The translations under genes were made by a program, and so were the position numbers. Shown piece by piece: positions 11,958-18,848 of a stretch of DNA of 64,000 nt. Under the pieces are notes generated by a model that was not told the DNA's origin, made no database searches, and was given only the letters and a program-made list of their open reading frames with translations. How positions within the stretch are numbered: the first letter of the stretch is position 1; every line of letters starts with the position of its first letter. Origin of the DNA: Candidatus Margulisiibacteriota bacterium (GTDB taxonomy: Bacteria > Margulisbacteria > Marinamargulisbacteria > JBFWNS01); contig JBFWNS010000005.1 in NCBI GenBank assembly GCA_050250935.1, positions 97,583 to 161,582 of the forward strand, given 5' to 3'.

Positions 11958-13721
11958 ATGCTTGTGTCTCAATTTGGTTTTTTGAAAAAGATTTTGGCGG
12001 GTTCGGTGCCTGCGGTGGTGGTTTCGGACGTAGATGGGACACCCGTTCGTAGACCCGATTTTTTAAGGGTGATGGGGTTGGATTCGCCAAGTGCTAGCCC
12101 TCTGGGGACCCCAGGAACCCGTGCTTTTCTTGAGAGTCTGCTAAGGCAAGCGGGTACTCCGGAACAGGAAATTAAAGGCAAAATAGCCGAATTGGAAAAA
12201 CAACGGGAAGCAGGGCAGGCAGCGTTCCAAGCGCTGGTCGACCAGATCGAGGCCTTGGGCAACCAGTATCGTGCTGTGCAAAGAGAAGCCGGACAAGTGG
12301 AAGCACTTCGAGAAGAAATCATATCTTTGAATGCCAAAGTTGGGGAATTAAGAGGAGAAAATGACAGTCTGGTTGCTGCTTCTGAAAGTGCTAACGCTGA
12401 ATTGGAGGAAAAAACGGCGTTGGTTTCTTCTTTGCAGTCCGAACTTTCAGTTCAAAGAAGTAGTCTTGAATCCAGTGAAGCTCGGGTTGCTAGCTTGAGC
12501 GCATCGGCTGAAGACGCTTCGGCAGTTTTAGAGTCGTTGCAGTCGCAGCTGTCGAGCACTCGCCTAGAACTTGAAGGTGCTAACTTGGCATTAGACAAAG
12601 CTTCGAAAGCTTTGGCAGCCTTGCAATTAGAAAGAGATACGCTTGTCAGTGCCCATTCGGCTCAAGTTTTGGAACTCAGTTCAAGCCATGAGGCCGTGCT
12701 AAATGCCAGAATTGCCGAAGCCATCGAAGCTGCTAGACGGTCAACACGTTCGGATGCTGCGGCTACTCTAGAGTCTGAAATCGCTTCTTTGAGGGCTAAG
12801 TTAACGGCTGAGCATGAAAGTAAACTGAGAGAATTGGAATTGTCCCATCGTTCCGAATTGGAGCAAATTGCGAGTCGTGAAGCTGATGTAAGCCAGATTC
12901 TTAGTTCGCTTCAAGAGCGAGTTCGTTCTTCAGAGGATACTCTTCGAGAAACTGAAGCTGCAAAAGATGCGGCTCTTGCCGAGAAAGCGGCACTGGCCGC
13001 TGCTTTGGCAGAACAAGAGTCTGCGCTTGCCAAAGCCGTCAATACAGAATCCGAATTAAGAAGCCAGTTACAACAAGCACAATCCCTTCAACAAACAACG
13101 GCCGCAGATGCTGAGCGAGTTAGAACCAAAGCCGAACAAAATAAGCAGCTGTTAATGAAAGCAATTCAAGACATCAACGCACGCGTGGAAAAAAAGGCCA
13201 ATCTTCACCGCGAAGAAGCCAGTGTCTTGAGAAACTTGGTTGAGGCCCAAAATGAGCAACTAAGAATCCTGACGGGAAAATTGACTGAGCTAGGGGATAT
13301 TCCAACCTTAACTTTTGATGCACCAAGCTCTCCTGCTGCGAGGCCTTTCGCAGCGGCAGAGCCTGCGGAATCCGAAGTGGTTGCGGCACTTCGAGCAGAA
13401 GTTGATGACAAGGCACAACGCCTAGAAGTGCTAGAAAAAGAATTAGCAGGGGTTACCGCCTTGCGCGAACGAAATGCGATGCTTGAGGAGAAATTACGTC
13501 AACAGGATGCGCCGCTGCAAAGCAGATTACGAGCACAGGTGGGATCTGCCAGAGGGGCATTGGCTTCAGCATTTGGGGATGCTCAACCTCCAGTTTCTGC
13601 TCGATCAGATACTTCCGCTGGTCCAGATGCCCTGTCCACATCTGCTCGTACAACAGGTTCAAGGGGCTTGAATGCGGCTCGTTCCTCCGTTTTAAATAGG
13701 TCAGGGCAGCCTACTAGATGA
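11958..13721 (+). CDS. Orphan long coiled-coil protein (587 aa), candidate secreted effector
   Basis: ATG 11958 after GAGGAG; about 450 aa of A/E/L/S-rich heptads; S/P-rich disordered ends; no signal peptide or ATPase motif. Confidence 0.8.
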   Translation: MLVSQFGFLKKILAGSVPAVVVSDVDGTPVRRPDFLRVMGLDSPSASPLGTPGTRAFLESLLRQAGTPEQEIKGKIAELEKQREAGQAAFQALVDQIEALGNQYRAVQREAGQVEALREEIISLNAKVGELRGENDSLVAASESANAELEEKTALVSSLQSELSVQRSSLESSEARVASLSASAEDASAVLESLQSQLSSTRLELEGANLALDKASKALAALQLERDTLVSAHSAQVLELSSSHEAVLNARIAEAIEAARRSTRSDAAATLESEIASLRAKLTAEHESKLRELELSHRSELEQIASREADVSQILSSLQERVRSSEDTLRETEAAKDAALAEKAALAAALAEQESALAKAVNTESELRSQLQQAQSLQQTTAADAERVRTKAEQNKQLLMKAIQDINARVEKKANLHREEASVLRNLVEAQNEQLRILTGKLTELGDIPTLTFDAPSSPAARPFAAAEPAESEVVAALRAEVDDKAQRLEVLEKELAGVTALRERNAMLEEKLRQQDAPLQSRLRAQVGSARGALASAFGDAQPPVSARSDTSAGPDALSTSARTTGSRGLNAARSSVLNRSGQPTR

Positions 13722-16094: not shown

Positions 16095-18848
16095 ATGCAC
16101 AAATTTGTTTCCATGTCCTTTGTGGTTGATGACCAAGATCTTGTTCCGCAAGCCATTCGGTGTATGATTGCCTGGATCGAGCATGGGTTTGATGTGATTG
16201 CCCAAAGGACCTTGTTACGAGCAGAACTAGAGGACAAACACTTTTTAGATCAAGCAACCCCAGCTCAATTACTCTGGTGTAGAGGGGTTTTGCTGTGTTG
16301 TGATCATTTTATAGCCAGTGTGGATGACGAAGAACCGGATGGCCGATACATCGACGATTTACGGGCCAGTATTGTCTGGTTGCAAAAGGCCAAAACAGAA
16401 TCACCAAATACCCATCCGTTTTACACCGAGTTTGCCAACCCCCTAGATCTGCTCTTTGAGCGTAAATATCGCCAAAATTGCAGCCAAGCTTTACGGACAG
16501 CGCTTTCTGAACGCTTATCTGAATTGCAGAAAATGCTGCCTTCCGAATCAGCAATTCTGAAGGTAACATCCCCACCCCGAACCCCGGCTAGGCGGGTGGC
16601 TGTAGATGCCCAAGCCGGCACCACCCTTACCCCCGAACAATTGCAAGTAGTACAGGCCATATTCGATGCTGTGAGTCCTGATCGACGAATTGATGCTCTC
16701 GCTGCAGCTAGTCCACAACGCCCGTCGGGGGCAGCTTTACGAAAACCCCCTCCACCCCCACCGCTTCCACCCCCACCACCACCTTCCTCCGACTCGGTTT
16801 CTTCGGTTTCCTCGGATAGGGATGTAAAGTTAGCCTGTGACCTAGCTCTTGGTATTAACAAGTTAAACACTTGTGAACAAGCATTGAATAAAGTAGATGT
16901 TGCTCTAGACAAACCGCAGCCGCTTTGTGATTTTGCAGCTGTAATTTTAGAAATGCATCAGACGCTAACGGCGTTGTCCGGTAACGACAAGGTAACATCC
17001 CTTCAAGCGTATCAAGGGTTGACAGTTTTATTGCAAAAGTCGGCTGAAACCCTGATTAAACGTCTGGATGAAGATATCTGGACAATCTTTGAGCACTCAT
17101 CTGAAAATCCAAAATGGGATCAATTGGCCAGATGCGTAATGACCCATTATAAGGTAAGCGCATTTAGCGAACTTCGAACCCGCGTGGTTGAGGCCTTGCA
17201 GTTGAAAAAAGAAGTATGGAATTTACGGCCAAAGTTTGAACAGCTTACTGCGTACTTGGTGGCAGGGATTGAGTCGATTGCTGAGATTGATAGTGATCGC
17301 CAAGAGGAAGTTGTGATTTCTAAAATAGATCGTTGTTTTGATATGCTTCAGCTGTGTTTTCCAGGCGACTTTCAGGATGAAAAAACAGCGCTTTCGGCTC
17401 ATAAGGCACGCATTCAAGAAGCCCTTAAGAAACGCCTTGAAGGCCTGGAAGGCGCTTTGAAACTTCAATATCCATTCGATCAAAGTCCGGTGGAGAGCCT
17501 TTGTAAAATGGCAGAAGATGCTTGGCAGGATTCCTTAACCTCAAAGCCCCTACCGCCTGCTCATGTCGAAGCGTTTTGGGCTATGATTCAAGACAGGAAG
17601 GTGTTTCCTGTTTTTACCCGTGCTGTGAACGATGCCTATCGGGATGAGTCCCGAGTCTGTGATCAAATGTGCCGAGACTTTAATGGCCTGTTTAGAGGGT
17701 GTTCTGATCCTTTAACCGAAACCGATTTGTCCCGAGTCCGGGGTGATTTTTTGACGATTCAGGTGCCAAGAACCCTGGGTTTTTATGTCTTGTATGAACC
17801 CGAAACGCGTTGGAAGCCATTGTTGAAGAATTTGGTTCAATTGGCTGTGAGCTTGGATTTTGCATTGGACATAACCCCAGTTTCTGAAGAGCTTCAAACG
17901 ATGCGCGTTCATGTTTTAAAGTGGTTTGCTCAAATTTTTCCCATGGCAGTGATGCGATTAAGTCGCCCTCCTGTATCTTCTGGTGCAGTTGCATCCGCAG
18001 CGAAGCAAGATTTCGACGCGTTTAATCGGTTAATGCCAAAAGGAGCTCAACAAGCCGAAAGTGCTTCTCAGCCAGTAGTGGCCCCCGCGCCTGGTCGAAG
18101 CGCTTTAATGGCTTCTATACTTGGTTTTAAAAGAGGTGAACCAAGACTTGCCGACGATACCCGTGCAGTTGTGATTACTGATATTCGAGAAATGTGTTTA
18201 CAGGGGCTCCCTTTTTCTATACAGGGTTTATTGCGACACCCTGAGTTAGAGTCGGTTTTGCCAAGGCTTGGAGAGCTATATTCGCAATGTAGACAAAGAT
18301 ATATATTTGGAATAGGGATGTCTTATCAGAATGTGTTGGAGAATATAGATACATTAAACCAAGAAGCCGTTGAAAATGGTTTTTTACCTGTTCTTGTAGA
18401 TTTGGGATGGGTTGAAAAGAGGATGGGATATTATTATCCCCGTCGTTTGGTGATGAATCAGAGCCTTTTATTGTCTAAATTATCTGATGGATTGGATTTT
18501 GAAAATCAGACTATTCAGATACAACAGTTGGTATCCGTATTGCCGGGAAAATGGTGTATGGAGCAAAAAATTACTGTGCTCCATCAACTTTTGTCTATAG
18601 TTTCAGAACCAGTCGGTGACGAGCAAAAAAATGATAAAATGGACAGAGTACGCAGATTATTGTCAAAATTTCCAGAAAAATTGAGTACAGACCAACTCGG
18701 TCAGGTAGAGTATTTATTGTCTACATTCCCAGAAAAATGGAATGAAGAGCAACGTTGTTTCTTGAACATCTTGGGGGTTTTATCCAAGCTTTTGGATAAT
18801 TTAAGGAAGCGTTTTCAACCGCCTGCTCTTGAGTTTAAATCTAGCTAG
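16095..18848 (+). CDS. Orphan 917-aa helical protein with polyproline tract, WH2-like segment and C-terminal 20-aa repeats, candidate effector
   Basis: KPPPPPPLPPPPPP; GRSALMASILGFKRG; LLSKFPEKL/LLSTFPEKW repeats. Confidence 0.8.
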   Translation: MHKFVSMSFVVDDQDLVPQAIRCMIAWIEHGFDVIAQRTLLRAELEDKHFLDQATPAQLLWCRGVLLCCDHFIASVDDEEPDGRYIDDLRASIVWLQKAKTESPNTHPFYTEFANPLDLLFERKYRQNCSQALRTALSERLSELQKMLPSESAILKVTSPPRTPARRVAVDAQAGTTLTPEQLQVVQAIFDAVSPDRRIDALAAASPQRPSGAALRKPPPPPPLPPPPPPSSDSVSSVSSDRDVKLACDLALGINKLNTCEQALNKVDVALDKPQPLCDFAAVILEMHQTLTALSGNDKVTSLQAYQGLTVLLQKSAETLIKRLDEDIWTIFEHSSENPKWDQLARCVMTHYKVSAFSELRTRVVEALQLKKEVWNLRPKFEQLTAYLVAGIESIAEIDSDRQEEVVISKIDRCFDMLQLCFPGDFQDEKTALSAHKARIQEALKKRLEGLEGALKLQYPFDQSPVESLCKMAEDAWQDSLTSKPLPPAHVEAFWAMIQDRKVFPVFTRAVNDAYRDESRVCDQMCRDFNGLFRGCSDPLTETDLSRVRGDFLTIQVPRTLGFYVLYEPETRWKPLLKNLVQLAVSLDFALDITPVSEELQTMRVHVLKWFAQIFPMAVMRLSRPPVSSGAVASAAKQDFDAFNRLMPKGAQQAESASQPVVAPAPGRSALMASILGFKRGEPRLADDTRAVVITDIREMCLQGLPFSIQGLLRHPELESVLPRLGELYSQCRQRYIFGIGMSYQNVLENIDTLNQEAVENGFLPVLVDLGWVEKRMGYYYPRRLVMNQSLLLSKLSDGLDFENQTIQIQQLVSVLPGKWCMEQKITVLHQLLSIVSEPVGDEQKNDKMDRVRRLLSKFPEKLSTDQLGQVEYLLSTFPEKWNEEQRCFLNILGVLSKLLDNLRKRFQPPALEFKSS

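Follow-up and report, generated by a model that had tools for sequence, protein, structure and literature searches.

Results

The window, a 64,000-nucleotide stretch of a Candidatus Margulisiibacteriota genome, contains four consecutive forward-strand genes: ORF1 (11958..13721, 587 aa), ORF2 (13718..15676, 652 aa), ORF3 (15681..16094, 137 aa) and ORF4 (16095..18848, 917 aa). They are real, as originally noted, and tightly coupled: ORF1 and ORF2 overlap in an ATGA, 4 nt separate ORF2 from ORF3, and ORF3 and ORF4 share a frame, with the single TAA between them directly followed by the ATG of ORF4. We placed the ORF1 start at an ATG behind GAGGAG; an alternative TTG at 11898 would yield 607 residues. 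The cluster had been placed between the dapL terminator and the promoter of an export operon. A bidirectional intrinsic terminator is indeed found 3' of dapL in a sequence scan (11725..11746, + strand), the only exception in sigma70 promoter and terminator scans that otherwise stayed at chance level, and in the 71-bp gap 3' of the cluster we detected no promoter for the export operon. The region lies within one 105-kb contig of even depth in a sequencing run that is possibly its source, and no mobile-element genes flank the cluster. The three DNA runs, from one study, are labelled as landfill metagenome.

The coiled coils, S/P-rich regions and polyproline that had been described are all seen. 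ORF1 contains a long coiled coil, ORF2 has a helical middle, S/P-rich linkers and coiled coils at either end, ORF3 terminates in 7 prolines, and the mostly helical ORF4 has two 6-proline runs (residues 218-230). Runs of at least five prolines occur in only 4 of 1609 ORFs scored, ORF3 and ORF4 among them. The claimed lack of Sec signals, transmembrane segments and enzyme motifs agrees with low peak 19-residue hydropathy (1.27, 1.35, 1.78 and 1.23 for ORF1-4) and with the absence of any Pfam or NCBIfam family over its cut-off, residues 18-36 of ORF3 being borderline. A WH2-like (actin-binding-type) helix may be present at residues 664-680 of ORF4 (18084..18134, + strand). In WH2, an LKKV-like motif comes after an amphipathic helix; here the helix part aligns to profile positions 1-17 of 28, scoring 17.5-17.8 bits (E 0.003, for a 40-aa piece picked by eye) against a Pfam cut-off of 23.1. 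A single-sequence fold of ORF4 residues 232-917 was unusable (pLDDT 42). Codon use is atypical: among 1400 ORFs, ORF1-4 rank in the 4th, 3rd, 1st and 9th percentile, with z between -5 and -9 and a GC3 of 0.31-0.40. The predicted excess of AGA, GCT and CTA is borne out by the four pooled ORFs: AGA makes up 34/166 Arg codons versus 10% in the genome, GCT 91/252 Ala codons versus 19%, and CTA 27/284 Leu codons versus 6.6%, a small effect.

The genes are orphans by our searches, which covered large databases for ORF1, ORF2 and ORF4, and Pfam, NCBIfam and the own genome for ORF3. ORF1 gave generic coiled-coil (SMC-like) matches and no homolog among 8000 scored candidates, ORF2 retrieved nothing but itself among 1.84 billion representatives, and ORF4 nothing but itself among 8000 scored candidates. 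One weak match to ORF4, at the proline stretch, was found in 60 relatives, and the ESM Atlas returned no usable match for ORF4 or ORF2 residues 240-490. The four proteins are related neither to each other nor to other genes of the genome.

The operon 3' of the cluster (18920..30962, + strand) begins with a CofG-like radical SAM gene and two ORFs of unknown function, followed by fliM (at 21410, where the export genes start), a parA-like gene, fliN, fliP, a further unknown gene, fliQ, fliR, flhB, flhA, a small ORF and a FliA-like sigma factor, one of two in this genome. The cluster had been described as lying directly 5' of it. Conserved linkage was rejected, as neither dapL nor ORF1-4 homologs lie 5' of the radical SAM gene in any of 20 relatives (several regions being short), and in 9 of the 20 its neighbour is one other conserved gene. 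The synteny check thus reveals an arrangement peculiar to this genome. Because of this, and because genes sharing an N-terminal motif with the cluster (see below) are spread over 9 contigs, adjacency is weak evidence and looks incidental.

On sequence grounds, the operon belongs to a flagellar-type export apparatus and not to an injectisome. The genome encodes an export gate, ATPase, C/MS/P/L rings, rod, a short hook-slot protein (FlgE-like, 287 aa, profile match, 45692..46555, - strand) and a stator. All eight core genes are found as homologs of sctJNQRSTUV (fliF, fliI, fliM/N, fliP, fliQ, fliR, flhB, flhA). An injectisome would have an Sct-type core, no flgB, flgC or fliE, and an SctC secretin ring; here the core scores as flagellar (FlhA 760 versus SctV 642 bits; FlhB, FliP and FliI over flagellar cut-offs), FlgB and FlgC are present, and FlgH/FlgI rings are encoded in the basal-body cluster instead. 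The basal body, C ring and stator of a flagellum are all represented, with FliG present as two partial genes and a MotA/MotB-like pair (PF01618 cannot tell MotA from ExbB, and MotA identity was settled separately for this genome). As in canonical flagella, export gate, rings and rod are accompanied by FliK-like and FliA-like genes. Flagellin, the hook-filament junction protein FlgK, the cap protein FliD and FlgE D2 were not found in this genome, which is 96% complete. Across 61 genomes, FlhA occurs in 55 (23/23 of high quality) and flagellin in 2 (1/23 of high quality). One relative, G057, keeps the machine alongside a separate, complete canonical flagellum. In a quick tree with one SctV row dropped and long branches flagged, the FlhA sequences of the machine group together as a separate clade (SH-aLRT 99), distinct from the three SctV rows. 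Sec-type signal peptides occur on FlgB, FlgC and two FlgF-like proteins, and the machine would therefore be unusually built; the signal on FlgC, which distinguishes it from the canonical protein, recurs in 25/25 Marinamargulisbacteria loci examined.

A conserved five-gene operon of unknown proteins (35541..41792, + strand) starts with an 87-aa helical hairpin, a candidate filament or needle subunit, for which needle proteins appear only among non-significant matches (E about 4). No profile match was obtained for the needle subunit SctF or a translocon. CesT-type chaperones were seen in 0/61 genomes, with controls silent too. As to other secretion systems, VirB4 and VipB were not found, an IcmK search for Dot/Icm gave no match with its control likewise silent, one divergent PilB-like ATPase is present, and a secretin (window 4616-5668) lies in an operon other than that of the export genes.

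All four cluster ORFs are headed by a motif, K-x-[IVL]-[AS], which we refer to as the tag: FLK-KILA in ORF1 (residues 11-14), MRF-KLVS in ORF2, MR-KFIA in ORF3 and MH-KFVS in ORF4. It occurs in frame at 71 of 1305 ORF starts (about 5% of this genome's ORFs), near residues 3-6, versus 6 and 5 counted in the two alternative frames and 18.6+-4.4 (maximum 34) in 500 shuffles of the N-termini; these in-genome statistics are partly circular, because the pattern was drawn from atypical genes of the same genome. The tag follows 70 of 8264 internal Met residues, and is found in 39/184 codon-atypical genes versus 6/464 of the most typical ones. Both AGY and TCN encode its Ser. The tag is a protein-level feature. 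A profile-based search gave 78 matches, about 10 of which resemble false positives from housekeeping genes. Among relatives, which are not independent, tag load varies. In unbiased samples from three of them, the tag heads 12/289 ORFs in G060 (shuffles 5.0, maximum 12), 6/128 in G006 (2.8 shuffled) and 3/118 in G022 (2.4 shuffled); all three possess the export machine despite the weak or absent tag. The tagged genes of G060 are mostly housekeeping or signal-peptide genes, and its 7 promoter-bearing genes are all untagged. The machine's own likely substrates (FlgG, the FlgE-like, FliK-like and hairpin proteins) carry no tag.

A predicted FliA/sigma28-like promoter, TGCAA-N17-CGATA (11836..11862, + strand, PWM score 21.3), lies 95 nt 5' of ORF1. 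TGCAAT-N16-CGATA occurs 26 times in the genome, versus 0-4 times at each of ten other spacers. The promoter co-occurs with the tag (17/85 tagged versus 18/1462 other genes), and the units it heads hold 38/78 tagged versus 79/1531 untagged genes. Out of sample, in the relatives, 15/73 promoter-preceded ORFs are tagged versus 26/1515 others. Leaders are often short, many tagged genes beginning 4-35 nt 3' of the promoter. The promoter is not secretion-specific, since Sec-signal proteins and an RpoD-like gene also carry it. Its -10 CGATA resembles GCCGATAA, the canonical sigma28 -10 consensus, seen in G057; its -35 is TG[CA]A rather than TAAA, and the late genes it serves are orphans, not flagellin. 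It was not found near the flagellin genes of G057 and G003 or before the machine's structural operons in this genome (best score 7.8, before the hairpin operon). In G057, it adjoins the second-system flhA, and a canonical sigma28 promoter is found in the flagellin cluster.

Pfam left 42 of the 71 tagged proteins without a match. The others include F-box, F-box plus ARM, triple Myb and ankyrin proteins, two Ser/Thr kinases, ADP-ribosyltransferase, PP2C and DnaJ domains, and many ordinary-looking enzymes. Among 30 further proteins, either promoter-bearing or look-alikes, are a carnitine acyltransferase and four mitochondrial-carrier domains, one of which scores below its cut-off. We know of no use for F-box, Myb or mitochondrial-carrier domains in the bacterial cytoplasm. 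A cytochrome P450 (60268..61872, - strand, profile match) carries the tag as MTQF-KYLA, its enzyme domain following about 40 residues further on. In a tagged threonine dehydratase, an additional 18 residues precede the Met at which its homologs start (median extension 2 over 120 rows, query included), and one close homolog carries a separate tag of equal length. Judging by these starts, the tag is an addition ahead of a pre-existing Met.

Discussion

We consider it reasonably probable that the cluster, a single operon of orphan genes with tagged products, encodes effectors which a flagellum-derived, flagellin-less type III machine delivers to a eukaryotic host, probably a protist. The cluster is best read as coding for fast-evolving, secreted cargo directed at eukaryotes, because of the shared tag, the shared FliA-like promoter and the eukaryote-type domains in the co-tagged set. 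The same three features strengthen the original prediction of secreted effectors and a eukaryotic host or prey, while the neighbouring machine proved flagellar in type rather than an injectisome; secretion, route and host of the tagged proteins we infer from sequence. No description of the tag, the promoter or a secretion role was found in the literature searched, including the covered part of the PMC6349859 supplements.

The tagged proteins could instead be effectors, with the tag as export label, that leave by another route (an unrecognized system, vesicles or release by lysis) while the machine does something else. The strong variation in tag load beside a universal machine, its untagged subunits, its unusual construction and the presence of a secretin would all fit. 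We judge this unlikely, as VirB4 and VipB were not found, a Sec signal would be longer and less polar than the tag, and the promoter, FliA-like in sequence, adjoins the second-system flhA in G057. Still less probable in our view is that the tag serves translation initiation or stability in late transcripts, often with short leaders, and that the cluster encodes cytoplasmic proteins, its genes being recent acquisitions within a developmental regulon. The codons for Lys and Ile are rich in A/T, many tagged genes start just behind their promoter, and the regulon takes in untagged genes, but composition-keeping shuffles yield a quarter of the tag count, the tag varies synonymously and between AGY and TCN, is rare in typical genes and is placed before an existing Met, and the F-box, Myb and mitochondrial-carrier domains would remain unaccounted for. 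Equally improbable is a motility flagellum with an unrecognized filament beside an unrelated foreign island: the MotA/MotB-like pair, FliG, FliM, FliN and P and L rings, a supplement calling Margulisbacteria motile by polar flagella (PMC6349859) and the atypical codons speak for it, whereas filament genes were not found, G057 retains a separate complete flagellum, an island would not have its tag and promoter in common with genes scattered over many contigs, and mobile-element genes are absent from the flanks.

Returning to effector delivery by the flagellin-less machine, we compared it with known systems. Injectisomes (Abby and Rocha 2012, PMC3459982) keep a type III export core without flagellin, and many of their effectors are lineage-specific orphans or resemble eukaryotic proteins, with a label at the N-terminus but lacking a Sec signal, much as here; the present machine differs in keeping rod, P/L rings and stator, in having no linked secretin, and in a label that is a short consensus motif. 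Non-flagellated Lysobacter enzymogenes OH11 has flagellar export genes and no functional flagellin, and export of yeast-toxic proteins is reported (PMC7688988); that system is a remnant in one genus, in contrast to a phylum-wide separate FlhA clade here, where a true flagellum coexists (G057) and a dedicated promoter, a tag and Sec-type rod-protein signals are found. The protist symbionts Legionella and environmental Chlamydiae are likewise bacteria whose effector repertoires include F-box, ankyrin, kinase, ARM and mitochondrial-carrier domains; their machines and signals are other than those here. An intracellular relative, Ruthmannia eludens, expresses 15 of 21 'flagell' rows, none of them flagellin (PMC6784892, supplement 3); this organism, the only intracellular Marinamargulisbacteria member described, is reported to be without canonical secretion systems (PMC6784892, supplement 1).

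Mechanistically, one of the two FliA-like sigma factors may turn on the tagged genes late, so that they would take flagellin's slot in the normal flagellar cascade. The export gate or a chaperone could read the tag, and the basal body might be the conduit for cargo, perhaps together with a filament built from the 87-aa hairpin protein. The coiled coils, polyproline and WH2-like helix of the cluster would, tentatively, be consistent with products that target actin or membranes of the host. The host-associated bacterium Buchnera aphidicola keeps hook-basal bodies, that is, basal body and export apparatus without filament, and has lost the motor. It has no tagged effector set that we know of; the present genome has both a stator and about 70 tagged genes.

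Injectisomes are thought to derive once from flagella. It is conceivable, though rather doubtful at present, that Margulisbacteria, the sister lineage of cyanobacteria, independently converted a duplicated flagellum into an effector-delivery machine, with P/L rings and stator kept, the rod partly exported via Sec, a small hairpin subunit in place of flagellin, a four-residue cargo tag and a re-specified FliA promoter; the cluster operon would then be a cytoskeleton- or membrane-directed part of an arsenal of about 70 proteins. In type III signals, a consensus is usually absent. A short consensus export tag, if real, would be unusual among these systems, and would offer a direct route to listing effectors and inferring hosts in uncultured genomes. 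A separate, phylum-wide flagellum conversion with identifiable cargo would, if true, provide a second test case of the flagellum-to-injectisome transition and explain how Marinamargulisbacteria act on their hosts.

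A coupled cluster of orphan genes beside an export operon

The four-gene cluster (ORF1-ORF4; 11958-13721, 13718-15676, 15681-16094 and 16095-18848, plus strand) lies in a genome (G000) of 1.95 Mb and 96% completeness, in which the window spans G000:C5:97583-161582. We found the cluster to be present as described in the original prediction, with its genes translationally coupled. The orphan status claimed there holds for ORF1, ORF2 and ORF4, which matched nothing but themselves in large-database searches, and ORF1-ORF4 hit no Pfam or NCBIfam family over cut-off. Their deviant codon choice, first judged by eye, is borne out as well, with codon use in the bottom 1-9% of 1400 ranked ORFs. 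ORF1 and ORF2 are rich in coiled coils, and ORF3 and ORF4 are the polyproline members, holding two of the genome's four long runs of proline. A WH2-like helix in ORF4 scores under the Pfam cut-off and is the sole match of its kind among 78 tagged proteins; the four sequences hint, at most weakly, that their products might act on host actin or membranes. A single stop at 16094/16095 separates ORF3 from ORF4, both in the same frame. ORF4 has its own N-terminal tag, which favours two genes over a single broken one. A second operon (G000:C3:96427-105156) has a similar layout, with three large tagged orphans after a promoter-led signal-peptide gene.

The terminator proposed after dapL is real, and scanning the gap between cluster and export operon did not detect the promoter claimed there. 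Neither dapL nor ORF1-4 lies upstream of the radical SAM gene in any of 20 relatives (0/20). Since tagged genes are also scattered, the adjacency of cluster and operon is probably due to chance or recent rearrangement. The region at G000:C1 ~36-61 kb resembles a prophage: its translations, read by eye, include tail-, baseplate- and terminase-like ORFs.

A probable flagellum-derived export machine

The export operon (18920-30962, plus strand) encodes FliM, FliN, FliP, FliQ, FliR, FlhB, FlhA and a FliA-like sigma factor. Its first gene is CofG-like radical SAM (18920-19996; matches in 48/61 genomes), and a signal-peptide protein of unassigned family (24856-25842) lies between fliP and fliQ. A short FlgE-like gene is found inside the window, and FliK-like, two FlgF-like, FlgG, FlgA, FlgH, FlgI, FlgB, FlgC, FliF, FliH, FliI and MotA/MotB proteins and two partial FliG genes are encoded elsewhere. 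We classified the system by criteria from PMC3459982. Export of ORF1-4 by another route is unlikely; VirB4 and VipB were searched for and not found.

Searches of G000 found no flagellin, FlgK, FliD or hook D2 domain. FlhA is present in 55 of 61 genomes (23/23 of high quality) and flagellin in two of the 61. A cryptic flagellum combined with a foreign island is a very improbable reading. One relative (G057) has both a canonical flagellum, with flagellins, a canonical sigma28 promoter and an FlhA 39% identical to that of G000, and a second system, whose FlhA is 67% identical and whose flhA adjoins the promoter of this study. G000 FlhA shares ~70-79% identity with Marinamargulisbacteria records; the closest comparison genomes are of the same class, none of the same family. 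In a quick FlhA tree, 25 Margulisbacteria rows group in one clade (support 99), and the five canonical FlhA rows and three SctV rows fall outside it. Margulisbacteria are described as motile by polar flagella in PMC6349859, and PMC7688988 provides an earlier example of flagellar export in the absence of flagellin. We found no account of this system in the literature searched, and the portions seen of 10.1101/568287 and PMC9324843 hold nothing relevant to it.

Judged by eye and hydropathy, the FlgC proteins of 25/25 Marinamargulisbacteria loci and two others carry a hydrophobic leader of Sec type, and none was seen in two further relatives (G055, G060) or in the canonical G057 copy. At L091:9239-16084 (G000:C1 315-322 kb), FlgB, FlgC, two FlgF-like proteins and an FlgJ-like protein have Sec-type signal peptides, and FlgG does not. 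The partial FliG genes map to L091:18386-19033 and L093:9968-11446; in the piece with the C-terminal domain, a fused signal peptide, periplasmic part and membrane span come first, and a TPR protein adjoins. A conserved five-gene operon without Pfam matches (35541-41792) is a candidate filament, inner-rod and gatekeeper set, and some relatives have duplicated or triplicated small helical proteins. Its conserved 87-aa protein (at 35541; 27/61 genomes) is predicted to fold into a helical hairpin, whose likeness to needle subunits is non-significant.

An N-terminal tag and a FliA-like promoter

All four ORFs start with a motif K-x-[IVL]-[AS], the tag (FLKKILA, MRFKLVS, MRKFIA and MHKFVS in ORF1 to ORF4). 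It was drawn from a listing of the most codon-atypical genes of G000 (starts such as MKKLIAV, MHKLIST and MNYKFISL), and in-genome statistics are therefore partly circular. Counted as K-[LFMIQHWTV]-[IVL]-[AS] with the lysine at residues 2-10, it begins 71 of 1305 ORFs, versus 6 and 5 in the other two frames and 18.6 expected from shuffled N-termini (maximum 34 in 500 shuffles); it follows 70 of 8264 internal methionines. The tag is enriched in codon-atypical genes (39/184, versus 6/464 of the most typical) and its serine is encoded by both codon families, which shows selection on the protein sequence. A refined profile retrieved 78 genes, including some housekeeping false positives.

ORF1 is preceded by a FliA-like promoter (11836-11862), whose -10 part is similar to the sigma28 element. 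TG[CA]A[AT]-N17-CGATA occurs upstream of 17/85 tagged and 18/1462 other genes, the strict form 26 times at its spacer versus 0-4 at each of ten others, and by operon the promoter stands ahead of 38/78 tagged versus 79/1531 untagged genes. It is present in 57/61 genomes, with reversed controls near zero. In relatives, 15 of 73 promoter-preceded ORFs are tagged versus 26 of 1515 others, an out-of-sample confirmation among non-independent kin. Sec-signal proteins and an RpoD-like gene also have the promoter, which counts against the tag-promoter reading. Two relatives (L163, L314) have the promoter ahead of a gene for an RpoD-like sigma factor. G000 has two FliA-like genes, one being the last of the export operon. 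A small conserved protein downstream of the promoter in three genomes (G000:C1:110742-111206, L156, L174) is possibly a regulator of the regulon.

Tagged proteins as probable cargo

Among 71 tagged proteins (profile score at least 7.5, minus the four window ORFs and 8 housekeeping-like matches), 42 had no Pfam match. Matches in the other 29 include eukaryote-type domains (F-box, F-box with armadillo, a three-repeat Myb with c-Myb as best solved-structure match, ankyrin, two Ser/Thr kinases), an ADP-ribosyltransferase domain, PP2C, DnaJ, three terpene synthases, two P450s and several metabolic enzymes. A 677-aa ankyrin-like orphan and a 635-aa terpene synthase carry the tag. In both F-box proteins the tag immediately precedes the domain, and in a threonine dehydratase 18 residues are added before the methionine at which most homologs begin (median extension 2); one of its three closest homologs bears a different tag of equal length. 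From these placements, the tag seems to behave as a portable label. A tag with a non-secretory role is quite improbable.

A further 30 proteins, picked for promoter, weaker tag or S/P/T-rich start, gave nine with matches, including a carnitine acyltransferase and four mitochondrial-carrier domains (one under cut-off). The carrier proteins (L133:493-1461, L114:193-1236, L114:5813-6745, L126:9213-10307) are untagged, three are promoter-led, and the S/P/T-rich starts of some suggest a second signal class.

The observation behind the original prediction is confirmed, and its effector interpretation is supported in part and widened: ORF1-4 are probably tagged effectors of the flagellum-derived export machine. 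In G060, four large consecutive untagged orphans, each with the promoter before it (L308:1785-17078), are possibly cargo bearing another label. A further point against is that in unbiased samples of relatives the frequency of the tag lies at or close to the chance level (G060, 12/289; G006, 6/128; G022, 3/118). The tagged arsenal has thus grown greatly in some lineages, and in others it is sparse or bears a different label.
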